A DNA stretch of 64,000 nucleotides from Chloroflexota bacterium (GCA_013112575.1 JABFGG010000003.1:324997-388996), one strand, 5' to 3'; positions 25,373 through 58,517 are shown, counted from the stretch's first letter. The notes: generated by a model not told the origin, from the letters alone. A program made the numbers and translations.

Positions 25373-25957
25373 CTAACGATCTAAAGCTGCGGAAACCTGG
25401 GAAGCCAGGTCAAGGATCGGCACGTACATGACGCCGCCATTTTCCGGAGCGCCGTAATCGCGGATCCAGGCGATATGACCTGTGCTATCTACAAGCACAA
25501 AAGTATGCCCGGGTTCACCTGTGCCCACGGCCCATTGAAGCACATCATAGCTTTCGGATACTTCTTGTGTGCTGTCGGTTAATAGGGGTACCCCGAAGAT
25601 GCCATACTCATCAGCCCCTTGAGAGAGTTCCTGCTGACTATCAAATGCAATGCTGACTACATCGACGCCAAGTGCCTGGAATTCTGAGTCGTTTTGCAGA
25701 TCAACGATCTGCTCCATGCAAGGCGGTCAACCCATTGCCATATGGAAATAAAGTAATACGGGCTTCTGCCGGTTTGTGTAGTCTGTCAAGGAAACACTCT
25801 GCCCGTTGGCGTTGGTCAAGGTGAAGTCTGGAGCTTGATCCCCAATTGCCAGTCCGCTTGTATCCGATCCGCAAGCAGCTAAAGCAAGGCTAAGCAACAC
25901 TACTAAGCTGACAAAAGCTAGTTTTTGCATGCTCTGTTGATCAGCATATCTCTTCAT
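25373..25957 (-). CDS. Selenocysteine-containing AhpC/TSA (thioredoxin-fold) lipoprotein, UxxC
   Basis: ORFs 25727-25957 and 25373-25717 are in frame across TGA (25727-25729): LLYFHMAMG-U-PPC-MEQ; lipobox LAAC; GDQAPDFTL; SECIS-like hairpin at 25696-25712. Confidence 0.88.
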
Positions 25958-26134: not shown

Positions 26135-27034
26135 ATGCGCAAACTTATCCTTCTTTCCCTGCTTTTCGTTCTCTTTGTTTTGCCGTTAAATGTAGCTGCC
26201 CAAGAAAGCATTCTCATCGATACAATGCTGGTCCAATTGTGGCCAGAGTACGATCGTGATGAAATGCTGGTGATCTATCGCATCCAGCTCTCGGCAGACT
26301 TAAATTACCCGGTTGCAATCAGCCTACCCATGCCTACTGCGGCAGGCGAGCCCAATGCTGTTGCCGTGCCTGGTGATGCCGGTAACCTTGTGCTCACACC
26401 CTATGAAATGGATGAGCAAGGGGAGTGGACCTTTGTTAATTTTACGGTGGAAACGCCCATTGTGCAGTTCGAGTATTATGACCCTGGCTTATCCACTAGT
26501 TCGGACGAGCGCCAATATCAATATCTGTGGGAAGGTCAGTATGCTGTCGAAGCGTTTTCCGTTCAGGTGCAACAACCTGTTGGGGCTTCACAAATGCAAA
26601 CATCTCCTGGACTGGATGCGCCAGTTCAAGGGCCGGATAGCTTGCAATATCACAATGGAGATCTTGGGTCTGCATCTGCAGGACAGGAAGTCACCCTGGA
26701 TATTTCCTATACCAAAGCAGCAGATACACTTTCCGCAGAGGCCGTGAGCCAGACCGGCGCTGATGACCCTGGGGTATCCGTGGTTGCCAATTCCATCGAT
26801 TGGGTGCGTTGGGTTGGTTGGGGATTAGGTATCCTTGGGGTGGGCATATTGGGATTTGCCGGTTACCGTTGGCTAAACCCTGTCGCACAAAAAGATACTT
26901 TCCGGCAGGGGCGGCGGGGAACAGCCAGTAAGAAAACCAGAAGTAGCATAAATGTCTTTTGCCACAATTGCGGCATGCAAGCGAAGGCAGGGGATAAATT
27001 CTGCAGGGAGTGCGGTACGGCCTTACGGTTGTGA
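26135..27034 (+). CDS. Secreted/membrane protein with C-terminal zinc ribbon
   Basis: Signal peptide MRKLILL, one TM segment, CHNCG..FCRECG. Confidence 0.75.
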   Translation: MRKLILLSLLFVLFVLPLNVAAQESILIDTMLVQLWPEYDRDEMLVIYRIQLSADLNYPVAISLPMPTAAGEPNAVAVPGDAGNLVLTPYEMDEQGEWTFVNFTVETPIVQFEYYDPGLSTSSDERQYQYLWEGQYAVEAFSVQVQQPVGASQMQTSPGLDAPVQGPDSLQYHNGDLGSASAGQEVTLDISYTKAADTLSAEAVSQTGADDPGVSVVANSIDWVRWVGWGLGILGVGILGFAGYRWLNPVAQKDTFRQGRRGTASKKTRSSINVFCHNCGMQAKAGDKFCRECGTALRL

Positions 27035-27048
27035 TTCAAGGTAGATGC

Positions 27049-27083
27049 AAAAGAGCTCCTCGTCAGAGGAGCTCTTTATTTTT
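27049..27083. terminator. Bidirectional intrinsic terminator
   Basis: aaaagagctcctc-gtca-gaggagctcttt between convergent genes. Confidence 0.8.
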
Positions 27084-27114
27084 AATGGTTCAGGTAAAGT
27101 TCTAGAAGCTAGAA

Positions 27115-28887
27115 CTACTCAGCAACATATTCAGCTGTGGCATAACCGGCATCGGCCCAACCACTGAAGCCACCTTTGAGGCTACGTACGTCTGTGTAAC
27201 CGTAGGCCCACATAATGGCTGCTGCGATGGTGGAGCGGTGTCCGCTGCCGCAATAGACAACGATGGTAGCATCCTTGTCGGCAGGCCATTCGTCGATCAT
27301 GTCAATGAAAGACTCAAGCGGAATGTGTTGCCATTCGCCTTCTGTGGCCACGATGCCTTTATCTTCCAGTTCTTCGAGGCGACGGCCATCGATCAGGATC
27401 AGATCCGGGTTTTCAACCAGTTCGGTGTTGAGGGCGTCGGCGGTGACAATGCCATATGGTTCCGGCATTACTTCAAGAGCCTGGGCCATGATCTCAACAT
27501 AGCGGGGGTCAACTTCGGCTGCGTTGAGCATTTCGGCTTCCGGCTCAATGCCTGCAACAACGGGATAACCAGCATCTACCCAACCACCATAGCTGCCGCC
27601 CTTGAGGCCGCGCACATCTTCCCAACCAGCGCCTTCCAGCAGGGTCAGGGCGATGGTGCAGCGCCAACCGCTACCGCAATAGGTCACGATGGGAGTGTCG
27701 AAGCTGGGCAAATAAGCCAGGTTGTCGGCCAGTTCGGGCAAGGGGATCAACACGGAACCTTCTATGTGGCCGCTGTCTTCCAACTCGGAGGCATTGCGCA
27801 CGTCCAACAGGAAGGGCGGTTCCTCGATCAACATAGTGTTGAGGGCGTCCAGGCTCATGGTGTTGTAGCCTTCCATGTCAGCAATGAAAGTGCTGAAGGC
27901 CGTATCCAGGTCATAAGCGCCACCAATGACGGGATAGCCATCTGCTACCCAGCCACCAAAGCCACCCTTGAGGCTGGAAACGTCGGTGTAGCCGTAGGCC
28001 CACAAAATGCTCATGGCGATAGTGGAACGGTGTCCACCTGCACAGTAAACGGCAATGGGGGCATCCAGGTCGGCGGGCCACTCGTCCTTCATGTCAATGA
28101 AGGTTTCCAGGGGGATGTGTGTCCAGTTAGCAGCTTCAATCGTGCCGTTGGCTTCCAGTTCTTCTGGGCGGCGGGCATCGATCACGATCAGGTCAGCGTT
28201 TTCTGCAATGGCGGAAGTGAGACCTTCGGCAGTCAGGACGCCGTAGTTCTCGGGCATTGTGGTGGAAAGAGCTTCATCGATGATGCTGACGAAAGCCTCG
28301 TTGGGGGAAGCACCGTTGAGCATTTCGGCTTCCGGCTCTGCGCCTTCAACGACGCCATAGCCAGCATCCACCCAACCACCGTAGCTGCCGCCCTTTAAGC
28401 CTTTGACATCTTCCCAGCCCAAGCCTTCCAGCATGGTCAGGGCGATGGTGCAGCGCCAGCCGCTACCGCAATAGCTGACGATGGGGGTATCGAAGCTGGG
28501 CAGATAGGCCAGATTGTCGGCCAGTTCGGGGAGGGGGATCAGCACGGAGCCTTCAATGTGACCGTTGGCTTCAACTTCTGAAGCATTGCGCACGTCCAAC
28601 AGGAAGGGCGGGCTTTCTGCCAATTGGGTGTTGAGGGCTTCCAGACCGATGGTATTGTAGGCTTCCATATCGGCCAGGAAAGTGCTGAAGGCTGCGTCCA
28701 TGTCTTCTTCAGCAAACTCGACCATGGGCTCTTCAACAACCGGTTCTTCGACGACCGGTTCTTCAACAACAGGTTCTTCAACGACTGGTTCTTCGACAAC
28801 CGGTTCGGCCACCGGGGTCCCGCAGGCAACAAGCAGCAGGCTCAGGAGGGCCAAGATGGTTATCAGTGTGAGGAAACGATTCTTCAT
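27115..28887 (-). CDS. Four-domain rhodanese (sulfurtransferase) lipoprotein
   Basis: Lipobox LVAC, EEPVV linker, four active-site loops CGSGWR, CAGGHR, CGSGWR, CGSGHR, each with LKGG..GW; internal 2x duplication. Confidence 0.92.
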   Translation of the reverse strand: MKNRFLTLITILALLSLLLVACGTPVAEPVVEEPVVEEPVVEEPVVEEPVVEEPMVEFAEEDMDAAFSTFLADMEAYNTIGLEALNTQLAESPPFLLDVRNASEVEANGHIEGSVLIPLPELADNLAYLPSFDTPIVSYCGSGWRCTIALTMLEGLGWEDVKGLKGGSYGGWVDAGYGVVEGAEPEAEMLNGASPNEAFVSIIDEALSTTMPENYGVLTAEGLTSAIAENADLIVIDARRPEELEANGTIEAANWTHIPLETFIDMKDEWPADLDAPIAVYCAGGHRSTIAMSILWAYGYTDVSSLKGGFGGWVADGYPVIGGAYDLDTAFSTFIADMEGYNTMSLDALNTMLIEEPPFLLDVRNASELEDSGHIEGSVLIPLPELADNLAYLPSFDTPIVTYCGSGWRCTIALTLLEGAGWEDVRGLKGGSYGGWVDAGYPVVAGIEPEAEMLNAAEVDPRYVEIMAQALEVMPEPYGIVTADALNTELVENPDLILIDGRRLEELEDKGIVATEGEWQHIPLESFIDMIDEWPADKDATIVVYCGSGHRSTIAAAIMWAYGYTDVRSLKGGFSGWADAGYATAEYVAE

Positions 28888-28961
28888 AATGTCTTTTCTC
28901 CTTATGACATTGATAGATTCATAGAGGTGAATGGCCTCTTAGATCGTTAAGTGGGTAGGGT

Positions 28962-30416
28962 TTATGGAATAAGTGGTGGGATACTTTCGATATATACATC
29001 CATGTTGGCTGCAAATTCTGCCAGATCGATCTTGTCCTGGGTGAGGAAAATATCGGCGTTGCCGTGGCAAGAATTGCAAGTCTGGTTTTGCGGGGTGATC
29101 AACTGGATATTGTGTGGTGTTGCGTACTTCCAGGTCGGGGATGCGTCAAAATCGGTTAGTAGACCCGACTCGTAGAAGCCATAACTTTCGGGGGAAATCG
29201 GTACGTGTCGTACCGGAACGAAACTATAGGGGCGATCAAAGGTCGGATTGGGATTGCGACCGATAAAGAAGGTCAGGTAATCACCTTCCGTCCTGAAAAT
29301 GGGATTGCCACTTTCTTCGCTTATTGAGACATGGCAGCCATCACAACTGGTATAAGCTACCGAGTGACACACTTGGCAGGATAGTTCTGTGCCGTGTTGG
29401 GCATGCATCTGGATACCGTCAGTGCCGGTGGTCACCGGGGCATGACAGGTCTCACAGCGGGGTTGCTGCAAACCATCGTAGCGATGATCGGCTGGAGCGA
29501 ACTCGGCTGCTTCTGGTCCGGTGTGGCATTCCTGGCAATCAGCGGGTGCCCCATGCATTTCATGACCGCTGTGGCAATCTGTGCAGGTCATGCGTCCCTG
29601 ACGGAAGTGAACGTCGGCCTGGAAGTCTTCATGTTTCCCGAGATATTCGTTGCCTACGCGGCTGCCGTGGCAGGCCGTGCAGTTACGCGTCATTGAGGGA
29701 GTCTCATTAAAGACGTGGCCCTCGATAAAGCCACCGCCAACAGAAGCGGGTTGGCTTACGTGGCAGTCGCCGCAGGATGTGTGACAACTACTGCAATGGT
29801 TGCCAAACATTTCCTGAACGGCGGGGTGTTCAAAATCTGCACCACGCGCTTCAATGGCGGTCTCATAACCTTTAAGGGTCACATGCAGACTGTTGCCGAA
29901 GGTCTCCACCACGTTTGGATGGCAGCTCTGGCATGTTTCGCCATTCTCGCTGGGGCGGGCCACCATTTCCGTGTGCGCGGTATCTTTGTCGGCAGATTGT
30001 TGACCACCATGGCATTCACTGCAGGACAATTGGCCATGCACTGTAATGTCGAATTTTTCTGAGTCAACCAGGACTTTTTCCCAAGGCTCCAACGGAGCCA
30101 CTTCGCCCCCTCAACCGGCGCCTTCATTTTCGGAGTGGAGATCTACCTCAGGCTCGGCTGTATCGATAAGCATTTGCTTGTCGGTGTGACATACAATGCA
30201 TTCGTCGGTGCTTTGCACCTCGCCTACAGGGTCATCTGTGCTAGTTTCCTCGTCCGAAACAGGCTCGTCAACTGCAGCATGAATAGTGGATGTTGCCTGG
30301 GGCTCAATTTCTTCAGTGACTGCATCCCCCGAACCAGGCTGACAAGCAGCAAGCAGGAAAATGCCCGCCAGCAATATCAATACGATGATGGTGTAACGAT
30401 GATTGTTTCCGTGCAT
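28962..30416 (-). CDS. Putative selenocysteine-containing dodecaheme cytochrome c lipoprotein (484 aa, U102)
   Basis: ORFs 30111-30416 and 28962-30101 are in frame across TGA (30111-30113): SENEGAG-U-GGEVAPLEPWEK; 1+11 CxxCH; only the 5' part has a signal/lipobox (LAAC); SECIS-like hairpin at 30085-30099. Confidence 0.8.
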
Positions 30417-30447
30417 ATTTATAACCTTGGCCCGGAAGGGCAGAAAT

Positions 30448-30630
30448 ATGTGAATGAAGGTACAAATTCGTGATAAATTTCACTTTCATTATAAACATTA
30501 GCTATGTAAAATCAAGCTCTTCAATAGGTTTTAGCTATAGGTTTTGGTTTTGCGTACCTATAAGTAAAAATTATCACAAACTATTAGCTGCCTATTGAAA
30601 GGAACGGTTAGTTTGTTATAATATTCACAA
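30448..30630. promoter_or_regulatory. Divergent control region with Rex-like and LysR-like boxes
   Basis: TTGTTATAATATTCACAA (30613-30630), TCGTGATAAATTTCACTT (30468-30485); ATA-N9-TAT at 30491, 30524 and 30560. Confidence 0.6.
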
Positions 30631-30649
30631 AAGTCTGGTAATTTTTAGA

Positions 30650-31171
30650 GTGTTTATATGTTTAGTGAGAGTGGTGGGGATGAAAATGCCAATTTGGCTG
30701 ATTGCTAAGGAGCCACCTGTGTTTATTTGTAAGTTTAACCATCCTTCCATCAAAGGCATCTTGATTTGCCTCGGCCTGTTGCTTATCCTGATCTTGTCTG
30801 GCTGCAGCTCCATAGGCGCTTCAGGTGTGCAAGAGGGAGGAACGATCACAGGGCGTGTCTGGCTCGATGAAAATGCAGATGCAGAATGTGATGATTGTGA
30901 GTGTGAGTTTTATCTGGAAGATATCCCCATCCGGTTATATGAAGCACCGTGTGGTGGTCTGATCGTCAAAACCGTGATGACTGATGCAGAAGGCATTTTT
31001 TCATTCCCTGATCTGGAACCTGGTTCCTACTGTGTGATGCCCAACGTCAAATTGATCTGTGAAGGTTATCAGGCCACAACCCCCATTACACAAACAGCAG
31101 AACTTAATGCGGGAGAAACCATAGAACTGGATTGGTTCGGCTTCGACCATCACTTTGATGTGAATGAATAA
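30650..31171 (+). CDS. Small lipoprotein with SdrD-B/Cna-like beta-sandwich domain (start uncertain)
   Basis: LSGC lipobox; ITGRVWLDENAD, TDAEGIFSFPDLEPGSYCV; several Cys. Confidence 0.7.
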   Translation: MFICLVRVVGMKMPIWLIAKEPPVFICKFNHPSIKGILICLGLLLILILSGCSSIGASGVQEGGTITGRVWLDENADAECDDCECEFYLEDIPIRLYEAPCGGLIVKTVMTDAEGIFSFPDLEPGSYCVMPNVKLICEGYQATTPITQTAELNAGETIELDWFGFDHHFDVNE

Positions 31172-31183
31172 AAGGGAGTAGCT

Positions 31184-32143
31184 ATGTTAGATGCACACCA
31201 ATTGAATGTTTTTCTTGTAGCGGCTGAAACCCTGAACTTCACGAAAACGGCCAAGCGCCTGCACATGACCCAGCCAAGTGTCAGTCAGCATATACAGGCA
31301 CTAGAGAAACATTTCGGTACGCCCCTATTTGCGCGCAACGGACGGCACCTGGATTTGACCGATGCCGGTCAAACCCTGGTCCCGCAAGCACGTGAAATGG
31401 TGAGAGCATCGATACGAATAGAAGAAACGATGGAATCACTCAAGGGTGAAGTTTATGGACACCTCATGGTGGGTTGCAGCACGACCCCCGGAAAATATGT
31501 CCTGCCACATCTCCTTGCCCGTTTTCATGAGAATTACCCCGAAGTGCGCGTCACATGTAATGTGACCAGCCAGGACAACGCAATTCAGATGTTATGCGAT
31601 GGCAATGTCCATATTGCTTTGACCAGCACCTCCCATGATTTTTGTAAAGGGGCGGAGTTCCGAAAATTCTTATGCGACTCACTCGTGCTGATCGCGCCTT
31701 TGAATCACCCCTGGGCCGAGCGCGGCGTAATAGAACCGCATGAATTGTACGAAGAAAAATACATTATGAGGGAAGAAGAATCGGGCACATTACAGGCTGT
31801 GGCGCAGGGTTTACGTGAAGGCAACATTGATTTCCACAGCTTCAAAACTTTTCTCACTCTGGGGAATTCGGAGGCGATTGCGCTCTCGGTACAGGAGGGC
31901 CTGGGTGTTGGCTTTGTGTCTAAGATGGTTGTCGACAAACTCTGTGAGAACCGGGTCGGTATTGTAGATATCGACGGCTTCAATCTTTGCCGTGATATTT
32001 ACATTGCACGGCAACCCAGCCTACCGGCTTCTGCTGCACTGACCGCTTTCTGGGAATTCATCAGTACTTTTGATTATCCTTATGAAATGTCTCAAAACAG
32101 TATTTTTGCCACCGACCGTATCCCTATCGCTCCACCGGTATAG
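31184..32143 (+). CDS. LysR-family regulator (CysL-like)
   Basis: NFTKTAKRLHMTQPSVSQHIQALE, GCSTTPGKYVLP, REEESGT. Confidence 0.93.
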   Translation: MLDAHQLNVFLVAAETLNFTKTAKRLHMTQPSVSQHIQALEKHFGTPLFARNGRHLDLTDAGQTLVPQAREMVRASIRIEETMESLKGEVYGHLMVGCSTTPGKYVLPHLLARFHENYPEVRVTCNVTSQDNAIQMLCDGNVHIALTSTSHDFCKGAEFRKFLCDSLVLIAPLNHPWAERGVIEPHELYEEKYIMREEESGTLQAVAQGLREGNIDFHSFKTFLTLGNSEAIALSVQEGLGVGFVSKMVVDKLCENRVGIVDIDGFNLCRDIYIARQPSLPASAALTAFWEFISTFDYPYEMSQNSIFATDRIPIAPPV

Positions 32144-32418
32144 AAAATGGCAGTATTTTGCAATCTGGAAAAAGTTCATGATCCAAGAAAACGGGAGAAA
32201 AATACTCCACAATAAGCAATCATTTGAGAGACATATAACGATTTAATCGAATGAAGCTGAAAATAAGTCTTAATTTGACAAATAAGGTCTTATTGTCCTC
32301 CTAAAAAGGGGACATCTGTCACTACGGTGAAGTACACGGTACGGCTACGATTCAATAGGAAAGACTTATCTTTTGGCGACTATAAACATTTCAATTGACA
32401 AAGGAAATAGAGGCACCA

Positions 32419-33435
32419 ATGACAAAGAGCAGACGTATTAAAATCGCCATCATAGCCGGCATTTTCAGCGGTTTATTCGCCATGCTGCTTACCAACGGGT
32501 TCGCACTGGCCAGCCCGGTTTCCCAGGATGAAGATCCCCCTGATGACTTTCTAACTTCAGAACAATGCGCTGCATGCCATCTGGACGTCACCAGTCATTG
32601 GGAAACCAGCCCCCATGCCAATGCTTATGCTGATCCTGTGTTCCAGGAGCGTTGGACGGGGCTTGGTGAGCCAGAGGAATGTTTAGCTTGCCACACTACA
32701 GATTATCGTGCCAGTACAGGTGAATATGCTGCTGAAGGTGTTGACTGCAGTGCCTGTCATGGGGATGTTCCGAGCGACCATCCTGCCTCATTTGCCTCGG
32801 TAGTAGCAGATACGGATTTCTGCGGAAGCTGTCATACCACCACACTCAGTGAATGGCGTAGAACCGGCCATGCTTTGGGTGGGGTTGGCTGTATCGACTG
32901 CCACGATCCCCACAATCAGCAGCCTCTTTTTGAAGACCCTGATGATCTATGTATCAATTGTCATCAAGACTCAATGGAAGACTATCTTGAGGACCTGCAT
33001 ATACAAAAGGGTATAGGTTGTGTGGATTGCCATGCTTTGGTCATCCCTCCTGAAGAAGAGCCGCAAGACGGTATCGTACCTACGGGGCATGGTTTTAACA
33101 TTACCCCGGCTACCTGTGTGGCTTGCCATACGGACGCCCTGCACGCCGGTTTCTCATTGCCCGGATACACACATCCGAGCCTGGAAGAAGTTGATGCTGA
33201 AGCTCAACCTGGGTTGCTGACCGAGGCCACCGAAGCCGAACATGTTGTTGCTGAAGGACAGCTTTCTGAGCAACAGCGTATTCAGGCGCTGGAAGCCGCG
33301 GCTGCCAGCCGTAATCTTTCTGTTCTTTTCCAGGGCGGCATCATTGGTTTGGTATTAGGCAGCTCAACGGCCTGGTTGATTTTGAGTAACCTGCGTCGTC
33401 GCGAGCAACAGGACGAAAATGGAGCCCAAGAATGA
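32419..33435 (+). CDS. Membrane-anchored octaheme cytochrome c
   Basis: Signal peptide, 8 CxxCH motifs, C-terminal TM helix. Confidence 0.9.
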   Translation: MTKSRRIKIAIIAGIFSGLFAMLLTNGFALASPVSQDEDPPDDFLTSEQCAACHLDVTSHWETSPHANAYADPVFQERWTGLGEPEECLACHTTDYRASTGEYAAEGVDCSACHGDVPSDHPASFASVVADTDFCGSCHTTTLSEWRRTGHALGGVGCIDCHDPHNQQPLFEDPDDLCINCHQDSMEDYLEDLHIQKGIGCVDCHALVIPPEEEPQDGIVPTGHGFNITPATCVACHTDALHAGFSLPGYTHPSLEEVDAEAQPGLLTEATEAEHVVAEGQLSEQQRIQALEAAAASRNLSVLFQGGIIGLVLGSSTAWLILSNLRRREQQDENGAQE

Positions 33436-34259
33436 CAGATAATGCCAAAGAGTCTAAACAGACCGAACCGCTCCTCTCCCGACGGGATTTATTAAAGGTC
33501 GCTGGTGCGACCCTGGGAACGGTAGCAATTACAGAACTGGTCATCACGGGGCCATTATCGCCAGCGGAGATCCAGGGTATTGAGCGTGAATCGCATGGCG
33601 CCATTTCTGGTGAAAACGAATGGCATATGGTCATTGACCTCGAGAAGTGTATCGGCTGCCAGTATTGTATGTGGGCTTGCCAGGGGGTCAATGATGTGCC
33701 CACTGACGAGATGCGCTGGAATGTCGGTTTCCCTGAAGTCACTGATAACGGCACCGAATTTTTCATGACGCGGCCCTGTTTACATTGTTCAGATGCTCCT
33801 TGTGTCAAGGTCTGCCCGGTGGGCGCTACCTGGACACGTGAAGATGGCCTTGTGTCGATGGACTATGACCGCTGCATTGGCTGCCGGTACTGCCAGGTGG
33901 CCTGCCCTTATGATGCCCGCCGCTTTAATTGGGAAGTTTCCGAACAGGAAAATCCCTATCAACCTACCTGGGGTACAGCCGAGGTAGAGAGGCGCACACG
34001 CGGCGTGGTCGAAAAATGCACCTTTTGTGAACACCGCATCGATCGTGGCGTAGAGCAGGGACTTGTACCTGGTGAAGATGTCCAGGCGACACCTGCCTGT
34101 GTAAATGTATGCCCGGTTGGCGCACGCGTATTTGGTGACATTAAGAACCCTGAATCCAAACTTTCTCAATATCTGGACAACAACGACACTTTCCGTTTAC
34201 GCGAAGACTTTGGTACCGAACCGAAAGTGCATTACGTACGCCCTGAGAGTGAGGTCTAA
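33432..34259 (+). CDS. Tat-exported 4Fe-4S protein (NrfC/PsrB-like)
   Basis: SRRDLLK Tat motif; CIGCQYC..C, CLHCSDAPC..C, CIGCRYC..C, KCTFC..C..C. Confidence 0.93.
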   Translation: MTDNAKESKQTEPLLSRRDLLKVAGATLGTVAITELVITGPLSPAEIQGIERESHGAISGENEWHMVIDLEKCIGCQYCMWACQGVNDVPTDEMRWNVGFPEVTDNGTEFFMTRPCLHCSDAPCVKVCPVGATWTREDGLVSMDYDRCIGCRYCQVACPYDARRFNWEVSEQENPYQPTWGTAEVERRTRGVVEKCTFCEHRIDRGVEQGLVPGEDVQATPACVNVCPVGARVFGDIKNPESKLSQYLDNNDTFRLREDFGTEPKVHYVRPESEV

Positions 34260-34260
34260 G

Positions 34261-35496
34261 ATGGCAACATTGGAACTTCCAAGAAGACAAAATCTGACGC
34301 CTTTCACGATCTGGATGGCCGGATTGGTTCTGCTGCTGGCTGTTGGAGCCATTGGTATGGCCATTACCCTGATTTACGGTTTGCAGGTTACTGGCCTGCG
34401 TGATCAGGTCCCCTGGGGCCTGTGGATTACACACGACCTGTCTGCAATTGCCCTGGGTGCCGGTGCGTTTACCTTTTCGGCGGTGGTGTACCTGTTCAGG
34501 ATAAAGCGTTTTGAACCTATGGCGCGTGTAGCAGTATTTGTCGGCTTTTTGGGCTACTCTTCGGCCATGCTTGTACTGGCCATGGACATTGGCCGTCCGG
34601 ACAGGTTCTGGCACCCACTTATTTATTGGAATGTTCATTCAGTTCTCTGGGAGATCACCTGGTGTGTGATCCTCTATTCCGGAGTGTTGATCGCTGAAGT
34701 ATTTCCAATTGTGACTGAACTGAAGTTTTTTGACCGTTACCCTAAGATCCGCGAATTTGGTCATTCCCTGCACCGTTTCACCTGGGTCTTTGCCATATTT
34801 GGCCTGGCGCTCTCCTTATTGCACCAGTCCTCTCTAGGTGCTACCTATGGTGTGCTCTCCGGTAGAGCCATATGGTTCAAGCCTTCTCTTCCAGTGATGT
34901 TCATCATTTCAGCGGTTGCGGGCGGCATGTCCCTGACCTTGCTGGCCACCCTGGTTGTAGGTCTGGTACGTGGCGTGGAATTGATCCCGCGTGACCTGAT
35001 CCGCTCTATCTCCCGCGTGATCGCATTTGCTTTATTGGGTTACTTGTATCTAAAGCTTTGGGACTGGGCAGCAACTTCCTATTACAGTAGCTCCCCAGGA
35101 GCCGCAGATGCACTTGCCCGTTTGCAGGCAACGACTCCTTATACGACAACCTTCTGGTGGTTGGAGATAGTGCTGGGGGGCCTGGTTCCGGCTGTCATCC
35201 TTCTCTGGTCGCAATTGCGTCGTAATCCTGCCTACCTGGTAAGTGCACTTTCTCTCATCATCATGGGAGTGGTCGTGAACCGCTGGAATGTAACCCTATC
35301 CGGTCTGGTCGTGCCACCGCAGTGGTCTCCTGGAGTTACCGGTGGTACTTTGGCAGTTTCCTATTTCCCCTCAGCCGTTGAGGTCATGGTCTCACTTGGG
35401 GTGCTGGCTTACATGCTAACGGCATTTACCCTGGGCGCTCGTTATCTGCCCTTGTTCAAGAAAATAGGGGAGCAAGAAGCAGCCCATGCTGATTAG
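34261..35496 (+). CDS. NrfD/PsrC-family quinol-interacting membrane subunit
   Basis: VPWGLWI, DIGRPDRFW, SVLWE, LHQSSLG; ATG at 34261 after GAGG. Confidence 0.92.
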   Translation: MATLELPRRQNLTPFTIWMAGLVLLLAVGAIGMAITLIYGLQVTGLRDQVPWGLWITHDLSAIALGAGAFTFSAVVYLFRIKRFEPMARVAVFVGFLGYSSAMLVLAMDIGRPDRFWHPLIYWNVHSVLWEITWCVILYSGVLIAEVFPIVTELKFFDRYPKIREFGHSLHRFTWVFAIFGLALSLLHQSSLGATYGVLSGRAIWFKPSLPVMFIISAVAGGMSLTLLATLVVGLVRGVELIPRDLIRSISRVIAFALLGYLYLKLWDWAATSYYSSSPGAADALARLQATTPYTTTFWWLEIVLGGLVPAVILLWSQLRRNPAYLVSALSLIIMGVVVNRWNVTLSGLVVPPQWSPGVTGGTLAVSYFPSAVEVMVSLGVLAYMLTAFTLGARYLPLFKKIGEQEAAHAD

Positions 35497-35571
35497 CCTG
35501 GATAGGTAGGGCAATTGCTGCTCGAATATGCTTTGAGGGAAATACAAGCTAGTTGCTAATTACTGAAAGTC

Positions 35572-35601
35572 AAGACCACCCGGAATAAGGGTGGTCTTTT
35601 T
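35572..35601 (+). terminator. Intrinsic terminator
   Basis: aagaccaccc..gggtggtctt followed by a T-run. Confidence 0.75.
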
Positions 35602-35806
35602 CGTTAGCGATTTAGTGAGTTGCTCACATAGGCCGAAAGGCATCGCTCCAAGCACAAATGAAAAATCATTTTCATGCAACAAATAAGCATGGTGTGTTTA
35701 TCTAGAGAGGTCTGTCCAGGTAGATCAATCTATCTATTCGTGTATCCCCCCTCTCTAACCTGAGTGTGCCGAGTTTTATTTACAACTTGCCGAAGATATA
35801 AAAGAA

Positions 35807-35839
35807 AACCGGGCACATGTTCATGTGCCCGGTCCTTTT
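35807..35839. terminator. Intrinsic terminator after the decaheme gene
   Basis: accgggcacatg-tt-catgtgcccggt hairpin with A/T flanks. Confidence 0.75.
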
Positions 35840-35861
35840 GTGCTTAGAACTTAGTTGCGAA

Positions 35862-37991
35862 CTAGGGTCGCACTAAGCCTGCGGTGCTACCGCCAATATC
35901 CTGGATGGAGTCGAACAGGACTTGGGCAACGTATTCCGCATTGTGGACGTACGCTCCGGGGTCCTTCTGGGAGTATTGGTAGTTGTAGGCAGCTTGCAAC
36001 AAGCGAGGCGTCCAGACATTGTACTGGTTGCCGTAGTTCGCTTCGCTGGGGCCAGCCGACTCGCCGTCACCGTCCGTATCAATGAAGAAATACGGGTAAG
36101 CGTGGGAGTCGTAGATGATGGGCGTGCCGGCCTCGGCAGCATATTCTTGAATCGCTGCATAGAGGATCTCAGCCAGGCCATCGATCTCGCCTGCTACACC
36201 TTCTTCTGTGTCACCATCACCATCGTAGTCCAAGGTGGTCTCAAAGCGGATGTTCTTGAAGTCTGCCGCAGTGGTCACCTCAGTATGGCATGCGGTGCAT
36301 AGAGTGGCATCCACTTCGAGAGCGTGGGCGTTGTGGCAGTCGGAGCATTCAGTAGCTCTTTCGACGTGCTCGAACAAGCCAGTGTAGTTCTTACCGTCGT
36401 ACTGGAACGCGCCTTTGGCAACGTCACCGAAGCGGGTTGCACCGGCTGCGAAGTAGTGGATGTTGATGAAGCGGATTTGGTCCGTGGGGGTATCTGCGGG
36501 TAATCCTTCAACTGCGCCATTGACCGAGTTCGTGGATGAACGGCCCTGGTGGCAGGTCATACACAGGGAACTCTCACTTTCAACCGTAGCTCCACTGGGG
36601 AAAGTCACTTCAGTGACTTCGTAGAGGGCGTAGGTATCCAGATCTGTGTGACAAGTCGCACAGGTGAAACCGTTGCCGGGTTCCTGAGAGATCTCGACGC
36701 CTTCCGTGAGGAACAAGCCGAGACCCTCGGTGCTGTGGCAGCGGCTGCAGGAGCCGGGCACTGCACCGTCTTCGTCCCAGTGACGGAAAGCTTCTTCCGA
36801 ACCGGCGAAGTGGCCATGGTCGATGCGGTTAGCGGTGGAGATGTCGATACCTGTGTTCAGGTCTTCGATCGAGTCGTACAGCAATTGAATGATGTACTTG
36901 CCGCCGTGGGCATAACCACCCGGATCCTTAAGGGAGACCTGGTAGTTATAGGCTGCTTTGAGCAGACGTGGTGTCCACGAAGCATATTTGTTGGGGAAGA
37001 TGGCTTCGCCATCATCTACTTCGCCGTTTCCGTCATCAATGAAGAAGTACGGATAAGCGTGCGAATCGTAAACAACGGGTGTGCCAGGTACTTCTGCTGC
37101 ATAGGCCTGAATGGCCTGGTAAAGCAATTCCTGCAAGCCAGCGATCTCGAAGGCAATGCCTTCTTGCATGTCGCCGTCGCCGTCGTAGTCAACCAGGGAA
37201 CCTGCCATACGCACGTCCCTGAGGTCTTCTACGCTTTCCACACCGGTGTGGCAGCTTGCACAATCCGCCACTTTAACTTCCAGGGTGTGGGAGTCGTGGC
37301 AGTCGATACAAGTTTGGGAGCCTTCGACGTGGTCAAAGCGCGCATCGTATGTATTCCCGGCGTATTCGTAACCGCCTTTGGTCAGCGTACCGTACTTGGT
37401 GGCTGTGGCTGCGTAGTAGTGGATGTTGATGAAGCCAAGTTCTTCATTGACTTCGTCTTCACCCTCAATGCCCAGTTCAGCGATGGTCTCATCAACTGCT
37501 ACTGATGAGGCGCGCCCCTGGTGGCATTGCATACAACGAGCTTCAGCACCCAATCCGGAGATCTCGACGCCTGATGGCATGACAACGCTGTCCATTGAAG
37601 CTGCAGCTTCGTTGTGGCAGGTGTCGCAGGTGATAACTTCGCCTACAGGCACTTCTGCATCAACGACGCCGAACTCACTACCATCGGCACCCAGGAAATC
37701 TTTGTAACCACTGGCAGCGTGGCATTTGGCACAAAATACGGGGATCACGGCCGGATCGTCTTCATCCCAATGTACGAAGGCTTCGGCAGAAGCATCTGCA
37801 TGCGGTGATGCCTGCCATTCTTCTAGAAATGGGACAGTGACTTCAGGGGCCATGTCTTCTTCCGGCATCGCTTCCACAATTTCAGTGACAACGACGGTTT
37901 CCTTGACTACCTCAGGGGTAGTACAAGCGGAAATGACCAATACGAGCGCGACGAGCGCTAGTAGCAGGAAGAGAGGGATTGATTTTTTCAT
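35862..37991 (-). CDS. Decaheme cytochrome c lipoprotein built from two tandem pentaheme repeats
   Basis: Lipobox ISAC; 10 CxxCH; duplicated SAEAF.HWDED, INIHY, DYDGDGD, YDSHAYPYFF, WTPRLL.AAYNY, DPG.Y.H. Confidence 0.9.
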   Translation of the reverse strand: MKKSIPLFLLLALVALVLVISACTTPEVVKETVVVTEIVEAMPEEDMAPEVTVPFLEEWQASPHADASAEAFVHWDEDDPAVIPVFCAKCHAASGYKDFLGADGSEFGVVDAEVPVGEVITCDTCHNEAAASMDSVVMPSGVEISGLGAEARCMQCHQGRASSVAVDETIAELGIEGEDEVNEELGFINIHYYAATATKYGTLTKGGYEYAGNTYDARFDHVEGSQTCIDCHDSHTLEVKVADCASCHTGVESVEDLRDVRMAGSLVDYDGDGDMQEGIAFEIAGLQELLYQAIQAYAAEVPGTPVVYDSHAYPYFFIDDGNGEVDDGEAIFPNKYASWTPRLLKAAYNYQVSLKDPGGYAHGGKYIIQLLYDSIEDLNTGIDISTANRIDHGHFAGSEEAFRHWDEDGAVPGSCSRCHSTEGLGLFLTEGVEISQEPGNGFTCATCHTDLDTYALYEVTEVTFPSGATVESESSLCMTCHQGRSSTNSVNGAVEGLPADTPTDQIRFINIHYFAAGATRFGDVAKGAFQYDGKNYTGLFEHVERATECSDCHNAHALEVDATLCTACHTEVTTAADFKNIRFETTLDYDGDGDTEEGVAGEIDGLAEILYAAIQEYAAEAGTPIIYDSHAYPYFFIDTDGDGESAGPSEANYGNQYNVWTPRLLQAAYNYQYSQKDPGAYVHNAEYVAQVLFDSIQDIGGSTAGLVRP

Positions 37992-38530: not shown

Positions 38531-39049
38531 ATGGCAACTACACTGGATGCCCAACCTATAGCTAATCCCAACCGTTCCAAGTTCATTTTGGGTGGATTGT
38601 TGCTTTTGGTTGCGGTGGTTTATTTGATTGTTTCATCTACGATCGCTGGCGCCCAATATTTCTTTACTGTTGATGAGTTGATGACCCGCACAGATGATGT
38701 TGTTGGGTCGCCTTTGCGTGTCTCTGGTGCAGTTATCGGCGAGACCATTGATTACGATCCGGATACACTGACCCTAAAGTTCACTGTGGCCCACATGCCC
38801 GGCGACCAGGCATTATTGGATGAAGAAGGTGGCCTGGCCGAAGCACTTTATACCGCCGTGAATGACCCTGACCGCACACGTATGGAAGTGGTCTACGTTG
38901 GTGTTAAACCCGACCTCCTGCGGCACGAAGCCCAGGCGATTATGGCCGGGACGATGGGTGAAGACGGTGTTTTCTACGCCGATGAACTTTTACTCAAATG
39001 CCCTACCAGGTACGAAGAAGCCGCACCTGACCAGGTCAGCGACAACTAA
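38531..39049 (+). CDS. ccmE: Heme chaperone CcmE, Cys-type
   Basis: N-terminal TM, LRVSGAV, KPDLL, LLLKCPTRY (CxxxY). Confidence 0.9.
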   Translation: MATTLDAQPIANPNRSKFILGGLLLLVAVVYLIVSSTIAGAQYFFTVDELMTRTDDVVGSPLRVSGAVIGETIDYDPDTLTLKFTVAHMPGDQALLDEEGGLAEALYTAVNDPDRTRMEVVYVGVKPDLLRHEAQAIMAGTMGEDGVFYADELLLKCPTRYEEAAPDQVSDN

Positions 39050-39109
39050 TTACTGTTTATTTCAGGATCAGGAAATCACTTTTCTGATCCTGAGTTTGGA
39101 GAGAGGTTT

Positions 39110-41209
39110 ATGTTAGCTAGTCTTGGTTATGGCGCCCTTGTAATTACTTTTTTGGTCTCATTATATGGTGTGGGCGCAGCTATCTATGGTGTTACACAGA
39201 ATAAAGCGAGTTGGGTGGATAGTTCCCGCAACGCCATGTTGCTCACTTTCCCCTTATTGACCATTTCCGCACTAAGCATCACCCTCCTGCTCATACAAAT
39301 GGATTTTCAGGTTGAGTACGTGGCCAGTGTCACCAGCCGCAGTATGCCTATGTACCTGCGCATTACAGCCCTTTGGGGTGGGCAGGAAGGCTCGCTCGTT
39401 TTTTGGGCCTGGTTAATGGCTGCATTTGCCTCAGCAGTAACTTTGCGCGATTGGAAACGCGATCGCGAATTCCTTCCCTGGGTTGTAGTGGTCTCGCTGA
39501 GTACGCTGGCTTTCTTTTTGATCTTGATCATCTTCTTCGAGAATCCCTTTGTGCGTTTGTGGCAAAGTTCCTCCGGCGAGATTATTTCAGCAGTCTGGCA
39601 ACCAGCCGGTACCCTACCATTTATACCTGCCGATGGGCGCGGCCTCAATCCTTTGTTACGCCATCCAGGCATGATCATCCATCCCCCCTTGCTTTATCTG
39701 GGTTTCGTTTCCTTCGTAGTTCCCTTTGCTTTTGCCATTGCTGCTCTGATCACAGGGCGCACTGACGATCGTTGGATCCGCGTAACCCGTCGCTGGACTT
39801 TGTGGGCATGGTTGTTCCTTTCCCTAGGCCTGGTATTGGGTGGTCGCTGGGCCTACGATGTTTTGGGTTGGGGTGGTTACTGGGGTTGGGATCCGGTTGA
39901 GATCGCGGCTTTCATGCCCTGGCTAACAGGCACAGCTTTCCTGCATTCTGTGATGATCCAGGAAAAGCGCGGCATGTTCAAACATTGGAATATGTTCCTT
40001 ATTATCCTGACGTATGACCTGGTCATCTTTGGTACTTTCCTGACGCGTTCCGGTGTGCTCTCCTCTGTACACTCCTTTGCCCAAAGTGCCATAGGGCCAT
40101 TGTTCTTTGTTTTCATTGTATTGACCTTGACGATTTCCCTGTGGCTGCTTGTCCGTCGCTGGGCTGAATTACGTGGTGAGGAACAGATCAATTCCTTCTT
40201 CTCACGTGAAGCCTTCTTCTTATTCAATAACCTCATCTTCATGGCCATCCTGGTGATCTGTTTCTGGGGTGTGGTTTTCCCCCTCGTCAGCGAGGCCTCC
40301 GGTCTTATCGGCCAGGCAATTCCTGCGCTTTCGAATGTCTTCACCGGGCAAAAGATCACGGTTGGCCCCATCTTTTACGAACGTGCGACAGGCCCGTTAT
40401 GGGCGGGGCTACTGGTTTTGATGGGTATTGCACCGCTTTCAGCCTGGGGAGCTTCTACTGCTAAAACACTGGGCCGCAAGTTATGGCTGCCCACGATCAT
40501 CTCATTCATTCCTGCTGTAGTGATCTTTTTTCTGGGTGTGAGCGGTGCTGCGTTGCTGGCCTTTTGGCTGGTTTCGTTTGTAACGGCGATCACCTTGTAT
40601 GAGTTTTGGCAGGGAGTGGGGGCACGTGTGCGTACCAAAGGAGAAAATGTGTTCGCCGCCTTCTGGGCCTTGGTTGGGCGTGACCGGCGCCGCTATGGTG
40701 GCTATACCATTCACCTTGGTATTGTGCTTATGGCAGTAGGTATCATTGGCATCGAGATTTTCCAGACTGAGACCCAAGGTACTGTCCCGATCGGTGGCGA
40801 GATCGCCCTGGGAGATTATTTAGTGCGCTACGACTCGCTGGCTGATTTCAATACGCCCGATGGCCGCAACGTGGCGCGTGCATCCATCAGTGTCTTTAGA
40901 GATGGTGAATACCTGACCGAGTTGAACCCCCGTCGTGACTACTATTTCGAATCGCAACAAACCATGACGATCCCTGGCGTGCGCAGCTCTATCGAGGATG
41001 ACTTTTATGTCCTGCTAGTGGACTGGCAGCCGATCTCGACTCAGAGTGCAACCTTCAAGATCTACCACAATCCATTGGTGAACTGGTTGTGGTTCGGCAG
41101 TGTTATCTTGATCGTAGGGACTTTTGTAGCAGCCTGGCCGGAAAAAGACCGAGCCGCGATACGCGAGAACAAACACTTACGAGTTCAGGCACCAGCCAGC
41201 GCGGACTAA
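39110..41209 (+). CDS. ccmF: Heme lyase CcmF
   Basis: WGGQEGS, HPPLLYLG, WGGYWGWDPVE, SVHSFA. Confidence 0.96.
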   Translation: MLASLGYGALVITFLVSLYGVGAAIYGVTQNKASWVDSSRNAMLLTFPLLTISALSITLLLIQMDFQVEYVASVTSRSMPMYLRITALWGGQEGSLVFWAWLMAAFASAVTLRDWKRDREFLPWVVVVSLSTLAFFLILIIFFENPFVRLWQSSSGEIISAVWQPAGTLPFIPADGRGLNPLLRHPGMIIHPPLLYLGFVSFVVPFAFAIAALITGRTDDRWIRVTRRWTLWAWLFLSLGLVLGGRWAYDVLGWGGYWGWDPVEIAAFMPWLTGTAFLHSVMIQEKRGMFKHWNMFLIILTYDLVIFGTFLTRSGVLSSVHSFAQSAIGPLFFVFIVLTLTISLWLLVRRWAELRGEEQINSFFSREAFFLFNNLIFMAILVICFWGVVFPLVSEASGLIGQAIPALSNVFTGQKITVGPIFYERATGPLWAGLLVLMGIAPLSAWGASTAKTLGRKLWLPTIISFIPAVVIFFLGVSGAALLAFWLVSFVTAITLYEFWQGVGARVRTKGENVFAAFWALVGRDRRRYGGYTIHLGIVLMAVGIIGIEIFQTETQGTVPIGGEIALGDYLVRYDSLADFNTPDGRNVARASISVFRDGEYLTELNPRRDYYFESQQTMTIPGVRSSIEDDFYVLLVDWQPISTQSATFKIYHNPLVNWLWFGSVILIVGTFVAAWPEKDRAAIRENKHLRVQAPASAD

Positions 41210-41210
41210 C

Positions 41211-41699
41211 ATGAAATCCAGACTCTTTCTTTTTGTTCTGCTGATCGCCTTGTTGCTGGCTGTGCCGGTTAGCGCGCAGGATAATCCCCCGCCGGATGCT
41301 CCTACGGATGATGAAATCAATGCGGTAGCCAAGAACATGTATTGTCCGGTATGCGAGAATGTGCCCCTCGACGTTTGTCCCACACTGGCTTGCGAACAGT
41401 GGCGTGCCCAGATCCGCGAACTTTTAGCGGAAGGCGCTACTGAGCAGGAGGTCTACGACTACTTTGTGCTGCATTACGGTGATCGCGTGCTGGCAGAACC
41501 ACCTCGCACTGGGCTCAATTGGTTGATCTATATCGTGCCGCCAGTAGTTATTCTGGCTGGTATTGTGGCTCTGTATTTTGCCTTGCGCAACTGGCGCAAG
41601 CCGGTTGCTGCAGCTCCGCAGTCTCAAGCTGAAAAATCGGGTGAGCCTGAAGATGAGTACATGGCTCGCCTGGAAGAAGAACTTGCCAAACGCAACTAA
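41211..41699 (+). CDS. ccmH: CcmH/CcmL thiol-redox subunit
   Basis: MYCPVCEN, YGDRVLAEPP. Confidence 0.9.
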   Translation: MKSRLFLFVLLIALLLAVPVSAQDNPPPDAPTDDEINAVAKNMYCPVCENVPLDVCPTLACEQWRAQIRELLAEGATEQEVYDYFVLHYGDRVLAEPPRTGLNWLIYIVPPVVILAGIVALYFALRNWRKPVAAAPQSQAEKSGEPEDEYMARLEEELAKRN

Positions 41700-41726
41700 G
41701 CGTTTGAATTTGGATGGAATAAGCTA

Positions 41727-42317
41727 ATGGCTGAAACTGAATTAGAACTGCAAACAGATGCAGTAGAAACAGAAGTAGAAAATGAACGCCGTGGTATGTC
41801 CCTTTGGGCTAAATTGTTAGCCTGGGGCCTGGTGCTGGGGTTGTTGGCTGTTGTTGCTGTTCAACTGGTCGCTACCCAACAGGGCAATGTGGGCCCTGGC
41901 GAACCTGCCCCAAACTTCACTCTGACCACCTTTGCGGGTGAAGAGATTGGCGCAGCGGAAATGCAGGGCAAGATCATTGTGCTCAATTTCTGGGCTTCCT
42001 GGTGTAAACCCTGTGAGCAGGAAGCGGCTGATCTTCAAACTGCCTGGGAGATGTATGAGCCAAGTGGTGAAGTGCTCTTCCTTGGCGCAGATTATGTCGA
42101 TACCCAGATCGAAGCCAGCAAATACCTGGAAAAGTTTAGCATCACTTACCCCAACGGCCCTGACCTGGGGACGCGTATCTCGCAGGCCTTTCGTATCCGC
42201 GGCGTGCCTGAAACTTATTTCATTGATAAGGAGGGCAATCTGGCTTACGTCAAAATCGGCCCCTTCACGACCCTGGCCGAGATCACTGACATCATAGACG
42301 GTTTGCTGGATTCCTGA
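41727..42317 (+). CDS. ccmG: CcmG/TlpA thiol-disulfide oxidoreductase
   Basis: LNFWASWCKPC, GVPETYFID. Confidence 0.85.
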   Translation: MAETELELQTDAVETEVENERRGMSLWAKLLAWGLVLGLLAVVAVQLVATQQGNVGPGEPAPNFTLTTFAGEEIGAAEMQGKIIVLNFWASWCKPCEQEAADLQTAWEMYEPSGEVLFLGADYVDTQIEASKYLEKFSITYPNGPDLGTRISQAFRIRGVPETYFIDKEGNLAYVKIGPFTTLAEITDIIDGLLDS

Positions 42318-42318
42318 C

Positions 42319-42834
42319 ATGGATATCGGTTCAATACTTCTCATTTTGGCAGTCTTCGTGATTACTGCAGTATTTGTCGTTCGCCCCTTGATCGATGGGC
42401 AATCTTATATGGTCAGCGAAGAGGAGCAGAATTTGTCCTCTCTTTTAGCTGAACGCGAACGTATCTTGGATGCCCTTGCAGAACTGGACTTCGATCATGA
42501 AATGGGCAAAGTTCCTGAAGATACCTATAAGGCGCAGCGGGCCGATCTGGCGAAAATCGGCGTTGGTATTTTACGCAAGATCGATGCTTCCCAACCGAAT
42601 GGTAGCCGGGAGAGTTCCGGGGATGCTGTAGAGGCTGTAATAGCCGAACGCAAGCAAGTAGTCTCGGCGGGTTCAGGTGGGGATGATCCATTGGAAGATA
42701 TGATCGCCTCGCGCCGCAGCCAGCAATCCGCTCCGGCTACCGGTAAATTCTGCCCGCAATGTGGTCAGGGTATTCATGCAGGGGATAAATTCTGTAGCCA
42801 TTGTGGCACTGTGATTGATTGGCCATACATATGA
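42319..42834 (+). CDS. CcmI-N-like membrane protein with zinc ribbon
   Basis: TM, L.ELDFDHEMGKV..Y, CPQCG..FCSHCG. Confidence 0.75.
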   Translation: MDIGSILLILAVFVITAVFVVRPLIDGQSYMVSEEEQNLSSLLAERERILDALAELDFDHEMGKVPEDTYKAQRADLAKIGVGILRKIDASQPNGSRESSGDAVEAVIAERKQVVSAGSGGDDPLEDMIASRRSQQSAPATGKFCPQCGQGIHAGDKFCSHCGTVIDWPYI

Positions 42835-44726: not shown

Positions 44727-44728
44727 GC

Positions 44729-45451
44729 ATGATCGAAGTCCGCAAACTCATCAAACGCTTTGGCCTTAAATACGTTTTGCGCGGCCTGGATTTTGAAGTT
44801 GAGCAGGGTGAGTTCGTTGCCCTGATAGGCCCAAATGGGGCCGGAAAAACGACCTTTTTGCGTATCTTGTCTTCATTATCGCGTCCCAGTATGGGCGAAG
44901 TCATGCTGGCCGGATACCGTTTGCCCCATCAGGCAGCAGCAGTGCGCTCCCAATTGGGGGTGCTTTCCCATCAACCATTGTTGTATGGCGACCTCAGTGC
45001 TGAAGAGAACCTGACCTTTTTCGGTCGTATGTATGCTGTCAGTGATCTGGAAACTCGTATCGGGGAGGTGCTCGAGTTAGTTGGCCTGAAGAAACGTCGC
45101 CGCGATCTGGTACGTACCTTTTCCCGTGGTATGCAGCAACGCCTGGCGATTGGCCGGTCGGTGATTCATGATCCCCAAATCCTATTATTGGATGAGCCTT
45201 ACACTGGCCTGGACCAGGATGCGTCATCTATGCTGGATGATGTGCTCAAGGCGGTTACTGCTGAGGGGCGCACAGTGGTGATGACCTCTCACGACCTGGC
45301 CAGAGCTGCCGATCTGGCTTCTCGCTTTGACATCCTTTCTCGTGGGGTGATTGCGGCCTCAGCTCTTCATGCAGATATTCCTCCAGATGGCCTCCTGGCT
45401 TTTTACCGCCGTACGATCAACCAGGAAGAGGAGCCTGCTCTTGTCAGTTAA
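44729..45451 (+). CDS. ccmA: Heme exporter ATPase CcmA
   Basis: GPNGAGKT, FSRGMQQR, LLDEPYTGLD. Confidence 0.92.
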   Translation: MIEVRKLIKRFGLKYVLRGLDFEVEQGEFVALIGPNGAGKTTFLRILSSLSRPSMGEVMLAGYRLPHQAAAVRSQLGVLSHQPLLYGDLSAEENLTFFGRMYAVSDLETRIGEVLELVGLKKRRRDLVRTFSRGMQQRLAIGRSVIHDPQILLLDEPYTGLDQDASSMLDDVLKAVTAEGRTVVMTSHDLARAADLASRFDILSRGVIAASALHADIPPDGLLAFYRRTINQEEEPALVS

Positions 45452-46157: not shown

Positions 46158-46166
46158 GGAGTAATT

Positions 46167-58485: not shown

Positions 58486-58517
58486 CTTTTCTTGTTACAG
58501 GCATTTGGAGGAGTAGT

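Follow-up and report, generated by a model that had tools for sequence, protein, structure and literature searches.

What might a selenocysteine (Sec)-containing multiheme cytochrome do when it is encoded beside a tetra-rhodanese and an octaheme-NrfC-NrfD membrane module that has no molybdenum (Mo) subunit? The question is raised by positions 27115..35496 of the window, the 64,000-nt stretch of Chloroflexota bacterium DNA analyzed here (GCA_013112575.1 JABFGG010000003.1:324997-388996). Comparative sequence analysis indicates that the cytochrome represents a selenoprotein family that is new and built on a scaffold like that of octaheme tetrathionate reductase (OTR), within a convergent, non-homologous analogue of the Geobacter Ext/MccSep system. 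We propose, as a plausible but tentative reading, that the Sec cytochrome and the rhodanese act as a cell-surface reductase of persulfide or polysulfide that is fed from quinone by NrfD, NrfC and the octaheme instead of through a Mo enzyme. The seven genes and four regulatory boxes of the initial annotation of this DNA all lie where it had placed them, as confirmed by open reading frame (ORF), Pfam and NCBIfam checks. Its interpretation as a whole is partly supported: Sec, the rhodanese coupling, the absence of Mo and the boxes are upheld, and the novelty of the Mo-less module is not.

The cytochrome gene lies on the minus strand (30416-28962) and is missed by annotation because it is split at UGA: a 101-codon and a 379-codon ORF form one frame, joined by an in-frame TGA (30113-30111). 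Read through this codon, the product is a 484-aa lipoprotein (lipobox C25) with 12 CxxCH motifs and U102 in a G-x-G-U-G-G motif. We compared 30 related loci from Anaerolineae/Chloroflexota metagenome-assembled genomes (the close set) and a class-wide set of 73 loci covering all 75 non-self matches to the Sec gene in 301 sampled genomes, 71 of which carry the gene. The site is TGA in 29 of the 30 close loci and TGG in one (L004), and class-wide 67 loci have TGA, four have another residue and two are unreadable. Cys occupies the same site in full-length homologues such as P0004, P0018 and P0117 (P-numbers denote family proteins, L-numbers the loci compared and G-numbers sampled genomes).

A hairpin of the Sec insertion sequence (SECIS) type begins 11 nt after the UGA (30085..30099, minus strand; 6-bp stem, 3-nt loop with G first). 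In the close set all 29 TGA rows share the same codons 107-110 and 28 of them the same codon 106, whereas at 49 other invariant four- or sixfold degenerate columns the top codon accounts for only 32-88%, so that synonymous sites are frozen where codons 106-110 form the hairpin. Pairing holds in 99.6% of 258 cells, and a compensatory G-C to C-G swap, in which two amino acids change together, is present in 13 of 43 distinct rows and may be a single inherited event; none of 500 shuffles reached this. The single-sequence fold of the window hairpin is not significant (z -0.02 to -1.36) and is not the minimum-energy fold. The window's own genome (G000, 93.8% complete) encodes selA, selB, selD and tRNA-Sec, all over cut-off. 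Together with the conserved TGA, the Cys homologues and the covarying hairpin, this machinery bears out the recoding proposed in the initial annotation, and the UGA at U102 almost certainly reads as Sec. Assembly error or a pseudogene at the TGA is excluded by conservation across loci, hairpin covariation and matching contigs: assemblies from three public runs, each of which may itself be a source of this DNA, show no difference across 27000-36000.

The term "dodecaheme" used earlier for the cytochrome is correct for this member and not for the family, whose members share 11 hemes, heme 8 (C294) being present in 42% of 26 close rows. Eleven non-motif His residues are conserved at a level of at least 99% in 98 rows, no free Cys is conserved, and the window protein has no Cys beyond its CxxCH motifs and lipobox. 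U102 is thus the only free chalcogen and need not ligate a heme; a role as a required sixth heme ligand is unnecessary given the His count. Basic and aromatic residues that are invariant include K114, R191, R253, R403, Y415 and W429.

An AlphaFold2 model of residues 63-484 (pLDDT 85, pTM 0.80) places U102 on a Gly-rich loop that is modelled with low confidence (62). Searched with Foldseek, this model gave a single significant match, 1 of 143 listed, to OTR (PDB 1SP3; E 4.6e-5, TM 0.40, 14% identity). A profile comparison with the OTR of G000 itself brought seven hemes into register (probability 97.5%, E 7.9e-12), hemes 3-7, 9 and 10 of the Sec cytochrome aligning with OTR hemes 1-7. The heme order and fold are therefore OTR-like, and these sequence and model comparisons identify the protein as a distant relative of the OTR fold, the kinship group that also includes MmcA. 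It differs from OTR in its two additional hemes at the N-terminus, in the Sec loop, and in the replacement of the segment bearing the Lys ligand and the Cys at heme 2 that are described for OTR (PMC3769277, bioRxiv 2023.04.20.537704; here and below, most cited papers are drawn on in excerpt). The OTR model TIGR04315 gave no match to the Sec cytochrome at E 0.01, PDB sequence searches returned none for P0001 or NrfD, and a profile search gave only weak generic cytochrome matches. One homologue, P0179, has G-L-C-C at the Sec site and a fused N-terminal NapC/NirT-like tetraheme domain.

The nearest functional analogue is found in Geobacter sulfurreducens, where MccSep/ExtKL (GSU2937-2936), with the rhodanese ExtH and with ExtOP, likewise offers an exported Sec multiheme cytochrome c, a UGA with a hairpin and no Mo (PMC13510729, PMC5877670), and where the same cluster also encodes a rhodanese lipoprotein, other multiheme cytochromes and a membrane-bound redox module (PMC5877670). 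MccSep needs its Sec for polysulfide reduction (PMC13510729). The parallel with the Geobacter Ext cluster drawn in the initial annotation holds as an analogy; homology to ExtKL/MccSep has now been tested and is absent. The Sec cytochrome does not match the MccSep/ExtKL model NF040886 at E 0.01, and five homologues do not at 1e-5. MccSep has 5 hemes and the present family 11-12; its Sec stands near the C-terminus in D-G-U-P, in contrast to the N-terminal G-U-G-G described here; and it has a heme-ligating C239 and an Ig-like domain, whereas our protein has no free Cys. The Ext cluster uses a Rieske/cytochrome b and a porin, whereas NrfC/NrfD or b561 subunits occur here and no porin is present in the cluster. 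The only gene of G000 that NF040886 touches is not the Sec cytochrome: it is a pentaheme gene on contig C3 (C3:287048-288757; C-numbers are contigs of G000), a weak match of 30 bits against a cut-off of 250 over positions 198-335, with no internal stop.

A full-text literature search, with the BSepDB family list outside its scope, gave no description of the Sec cytochrome family, nor did the family turn up among the models of NCBIfam release 20 or the 119 families tabulated in a 2026 review (PMC13188914 Table 1). The cytochrome/CXXCH entries of that table are ExtKL, GSU2204 and a TIGR04315 member; the corresponding models all score below cut-off here, in a comparison that covered the models rather than the Sec-annotated TIGR04315 protein itself. 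The excerpts of PMC12013277 and PMC13326102 contain no cytochrome, and those of PMC12545173, PMC5317093 and PMC13059093 serve as context only.

The partner gene begins 74 bp beyond the Sec cytochrome gene (28887-27115, minus strand) and encodes a 590-aa lipoprotein (lipobox C22) with four Pfam PF00581 stretches, a duplicated two-domain rhodanese unit with 72% identity across 258 aa. All four domains have Cys in the active-site loop (C140, C282, C404 and C546), and the loops are kept in relatives. On this evidence the tetra-rhodanese is likely a persulfide/polysulfide carrier, and the lipoprotein signals suggest that it and the Sec cytochrome are both likely to sit at the cell surface. The rhodanese coupling put forward earlier is well supported. 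Of the 57 TGA loci that could be evaluated, 55 have a rhodanese next to the Sec gene or fused to it. Fourteen short-flank loci were set aside, and any locus with a visible rhodanese was deemed evaluable, a scoring that favours the count; the figure for evaluable non-Sec loci is 0/2. In L042, L043, L044 and L046, rhodanese domains, the first heme, the TGA and the remainder share one frame, and the database fusions P0122, P0180, P0185 and P0269 carry rhodanese at either end. YeeE, HdrA-like and OTR genes beside several Sec loci complete a sulfur-related context; a second LysR, a YeeE transporter and an HdrA-like gene lie downstream of the rhodanese in L001, L003, L004 and L005.

In the TGG locus L004 the hairpin codons are lost and the rhodanese is reduced to a broken remnant. 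Sec was lost without a gain of Cys in L004, L078, L096 and L117, all of which have no intact adjacent rhodanese and keep NrfC/NrfD. These four loci are possibly a derived, rhodanese-free form.

The plus-strand arm of the feature encodes an octaheme cytochrome c (32395..33435, probable start ATG 32419; 8 CxxCH, N-terminal signal, C-terminal hydrophobic anchor), an NrfC/DsrO-type Fe-S protein (33432..34259; 16 Cys, four clusters expected, twin-Arg motif SRRDLLK) and an NrfD/PsrC-family membrane subunit (ATG 34261..35496; 411 aa), in genes that overlap or abut. The Fe-S protein reaches 206.3 bits with the NCBIfam DsrO model (cut-off 200). NrfD is closest to the QrcD, HmcC and HybB models, all below cut-off, and likewise does not reach the DsrP cut-off. 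Its candidate quinone-site residues D59, D109, S127, E131 and S190 are invariant in 20/20 rows and match the HybB and NhcC residues of PMC8076601 by spacing only, not by alignment.

That this module travels with the Sec gene is supported by an NrfC-based search among 300 genomes, which were sampled without regard to the Sec gene: all five full-length close NrfC orthologues (67-72%) lie 2.3-2.5 kb from a Sec gene. None of the 29 other NrfC matches is near a Sec gene, and 15 fall within 10 kb of a homologue of the decaheme lipoprotein that adjoins the feature in the window (35862-37991, minus strand; convergent, with an internal repeat). The five genomes with a Sec-linked NrfC keep a second, paralogous module beside their own decaheme; two modules per genome, each by its own client, point to a division of labour. 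In G000 only one module is intact and may therefore feed both the Sec cytochrome and the decaheme, a possible second client. A decayed copy lies at C6:8591-10612 (L069), near a second ccm cluster, with a truncated octaheme, an internal deletion of about 140 codons in NrfC and an intact NrfD of 94% identity.

Class-wide, a census of 8-kb flanks with profiles built from few checked sequences found an NrfD-type (20) or b561-type (20) subunit in 40 of the 73 loci, in 35 of them on the same strand as the Sec gene. The layouts include NrfC-NrfD-multiheme-rhodanese-Sec in one run, Sec-NrfC followed by b561 or NrfD, Sec-nonaheme-b561-octaheme, and the divergent type of the window. NrfD proteins near Sec genes belong to distant, unrelated clades (quick tree, long branches flagged), and because kin are not independent the linkages represent a handful of events rather than 40. 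These neighbourhoods, together with the NapC/NirT-like domain fused in P0179, support a Sec cytochrome wired to the quinone pool by neighbouring modules. The octaheme-NrfC-NrfD module, earlier taken as the feed, is indeed linked to the Sec gene; it does not appear to be the sole input, as several interchangeable inputs exist and it is missing beside many Sec genes.

The reported lack of a Mo catalytic subunit holds throughout: a local two-sequence profile found none near the 73 loci, and G000 offers no orphan Mo partner for the module. Its four Mo-family genes (two FDH-like genes in NADH-linked operons, NarG and NuoG) all have their own partners, and their proteins show no twin-Arg motif in the N-termini examined. 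The refuting conditions named in the initial annotation were checked on the genomic evidence and do not hold: Sec, rhodanese and module genes recur together, and NrfC-NrfD is tied neither to a Mo enzyme nor to the decaheme only. The newness attributed to such a module does not hold, as NhcABCD, MccACD, Cbc4 (CbcSTU), DsrJOP and QrcACD also combine a multiheme cytochrome c with four-cluster NrfC-like and NrfD-like proteins and no Mo subunit (PMC8076601, PMC11434368), and MccACD feeds a heme-only sulfur enzyme. What differs here is the C-terminal anchor of the octaheme and a likely client in the form of a distinct, rhodanese-linked Sec cytochrome. PsrABC with Sud in Wolinella succinogenes similarly joins an NrfC/NrfD-type quinol module to a rhodanese-type polysulfide carrier (PMC8076601; PMC6378623), Sud being a high-affinity carrier (PMC6378623), but there PsrA is present and here it is not. 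A role for the module as a complex III substitute feeding the oxidase was also considered and is weakened by three bc-type cytochrome b matches in the genome.

Both arms may answer to one regulator. The LysR gene between them (31184..32143, plus strand) matches best the selenium-metabolism-associated family NF040786, below its cut-off (233.7 bits versus 250), and a LysR gene occurs within 8 kb in 19/30 close and 21/73 class loci. Three ATA-N9-TAT boxes of LysR type (30491, 30524 and 30560, spanning 30491..30574) occupy the divergent promoter region, against 0.285 expected and with 0/1000 shuffles matching. In relatives, 29 upstream regions contain 37 such boxes (shuffled mean 6.3, maximum 12 in 200 shuffles) and 4-14 occurrences of motifs with other spacers, and the boxes are often paired 34-36 bp apart, as are 30524 and 30560. 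The three-box cluster is thus above chance and conserved, whereas the single box upstream of the octaheme (32355..32369) fits the consensus but on its own lacks significance (P about 0.10). An octaheme gene that lies next to the Sec gene in divergent orientation has these boxes in common with it; in the six relatives where the octaheme gene comes after lysR, it has no box in front. We infer that LysR binds these boxes. Promoter-like sites occur on both strands of the divergent region; promoter and terminator scans were not above shuffles.

In the scheme that we favour, NrfD would oxidise quinol, and the electrons would travel by way of the NrfC clusters and then the anchored octaheme into the heme chain of the Sec cytochrome. 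The rhodanese Cys residues would take up sulfane sulfur, as Sud does; U102 would attack the persulfide, and the resulting Se-S bond would be reduced from a nearby heme with release of sulfide. LysR would induce both arms. The substrate, the direction and the catalytic role of U102 are proposed here.

A number of observations weigh against this proposal. Electron transfer from menaquinol to polysulfide is uphill (about -75 vs -260 mV), and the model nearest to NrfD, QrcD, is a quinone reductase. The 11 invariant non-motif His residues could make all 11 hemes bis-His, a second Cys like C239 of MccSep is absent, the Lys/Cys segment of OTR (GKK..NNFC in the OTR on C1) is matched partly by a gap and partly by a different sequence, and MmcA, a relative of OTR, serves as a conduit and not as an enzyme. 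In an alignment of 64 full-length database rows, which is biased by the splitting of TGA forms and a few misaligned rows, Cys stands at the Sec site in 20 and another residue in 44 (W 9, L 7, M 4, others); 143 further rows start just after the site, which fits genes split at the TGA. No membrane module was seen in 31/73 class loci (two more have NrfC only), and in the close set it is present in 10/30 and absent in 20/30; where the flanks reach 8 kb or more in both directions, it is found in 13/22 loci class-wide and 5/18 in the close set. Full-length NrfC of the window type is missing from 65 of the 70 other genomes with the Sec gene, and one of the 29 outlying NrfC matches, a partial one of 71%, is in G145, a genome with no Sec-gene match.

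In a first, unlikely alternative, electrons flow in the opposite direction: sulfide or persulfide would be oxidised at the Sec cytochrome, the rhodanese would remove sulfane sulfur, and quinone would be reduced for nitrate or oxygen respiration. This course is downhill and suits the affinity of NrfD to QrcD, HmcC and HybB, with Qrc, Nhc and Hyd-2 described as quinone-reducing; NarG, a bc-type cytochrome b and, in the window, a heme-copper oxidase are all encoded in G000. However, MccSep works as a reductase, as does OTR, the closest fold, and dsrA and soxY for onward oxidation were not found in G000, which is 94% complete.

A substrate other than polysulfide, with selenite, elemental selenium, thiosulfate or tetrathionate handled for detoxification, supply or respiration, appears quite unlikely. 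The selenium-related LysR, the kinship with OTR, the nearby YeeE transporters and a second probable selenoprotein 1.1 kb from the rhodanese gene would fit such a role, as would the reduction of selenite by MccSep (PMC13510729). Against it, MccSep shows an approximately sevenfold preference for polysulfide and does not act on thiosulfate or tetrathionate (PMC13510729), G000 has a true OTR gene elsewhere, on C1 (578 bits, cut-off 375), and two to six rhodanese sites with 11 hemes would suggest a high flux of sulfane sulfur.

We regard as improbable that the locus holds two separate units, the module being a general quinol:cytochrome hub for the decaheme, OTR or extracellular electron transfer that is merely co-regulated with the Sec cytochrome and rhodanese. 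The association of the outlying NrfC matches with decaheme homologues, the adjoining decaheme and single intact module of G000, the many Sec loci without a module, and the OTR that follows the module in L001, L002, L003, L005 and L008 agree with a hub. Yet the window NrfD groups with 13 Sec-linked NrfD proteins (support 85, quick tree), and 0/13 of these loci show a decaheme within the available flank; the five genomes with both paralogues keep each beside its own client, and in the 35 same-strand loci the NrfC-NrfD or b561 genes form one run with the Sec gene.

A conduit like MmcA, in which the work of Sec is confined to tuning or ligating a heme, or to shuttling to the rhodanese, whose cysteines carry out the catalysis, is very improbable: the His count, the lack of a conserved free Cys, the lost OTR catalytic segment, the MmcA precedent and many homologues with neither Sec nor Cys would allow it, but Sec is kept in 67/73 loci, the RNA element constrains the protein sequence, Sec loss accompanies rhodanese loss in L004, L078 and L096, and the invariant residues of basic or aromatic type would be suited to binding an anion.

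The proposed quinol-fed polysulfide reductase carries a broader possibility, which we hold more loosely: a second, independent form of selenium-heme sulfur respiration, in which an OTR-type scaffold swapped Lys/Cys for a mobile Sec loop, acquired tethered or fused rhodaneses and several unrelated quinone modules, and operates free of Mo in about a quarter of the Anaerolineae genomes sampled (71/301). Members of this class are usually regarded as fermenters or facultative heterotrophs; if the proposal is true, many of them would be overlooked players in sulfur or selenium cycling. The Sec cytochrome would also provide a second scaffold for testing the Sec-heme mechanism proposed for MccSep. The excerpt of PMC13510729 leaves the electron donor and the polysulfide delivery of MccSep open, and the present system names candidates for both.

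Several neighbouring features complete the description of the locus. The SdrD_B-like lipoprotein at 30650..31171 (plus strand), listed with these genes in the initial annotation, was found in 0/110 related loci and is excluded from it; it is probably a passenger insertion. The decaheme is a candidate surface electron-export protein, matched in 97/301 genomes and often beside a paralogous octaheme-NrfC-NrfD. The second probable selenoprotein mentioned above is a Redoxin/AhpC-TSA lipoprotein (25373-25957, minus strand) with an in-frame TGA in M-G-U-P-P-C (UxxC), split under table 11; it was not found in the 110 related loci. A plasmid search gave no match.

Elsewhere in G000, C1:279100-285097 (L068) encodes the true OTR (TIGR04315) together with a heptaheme-cytochrome b561 fusion, YeeE/YedE and YeeE-rhodanese genes, and a unit of this type adjoins the Sec cluster in L001, L002, L003, L005 and L008. 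The window also holds a complete ccm heme-maturation cluster and a cytochrome c-fused heme-copper oxidase (38531-46865 and 57415-60497), as well as two moeA genes (53113-56306). selA is matched in 264/301 class genomes, and in G000 in-frame TGA codons occur in selD, in one FDH-like gene and in a bc-type cytochrome b match (C8:8634-9035).

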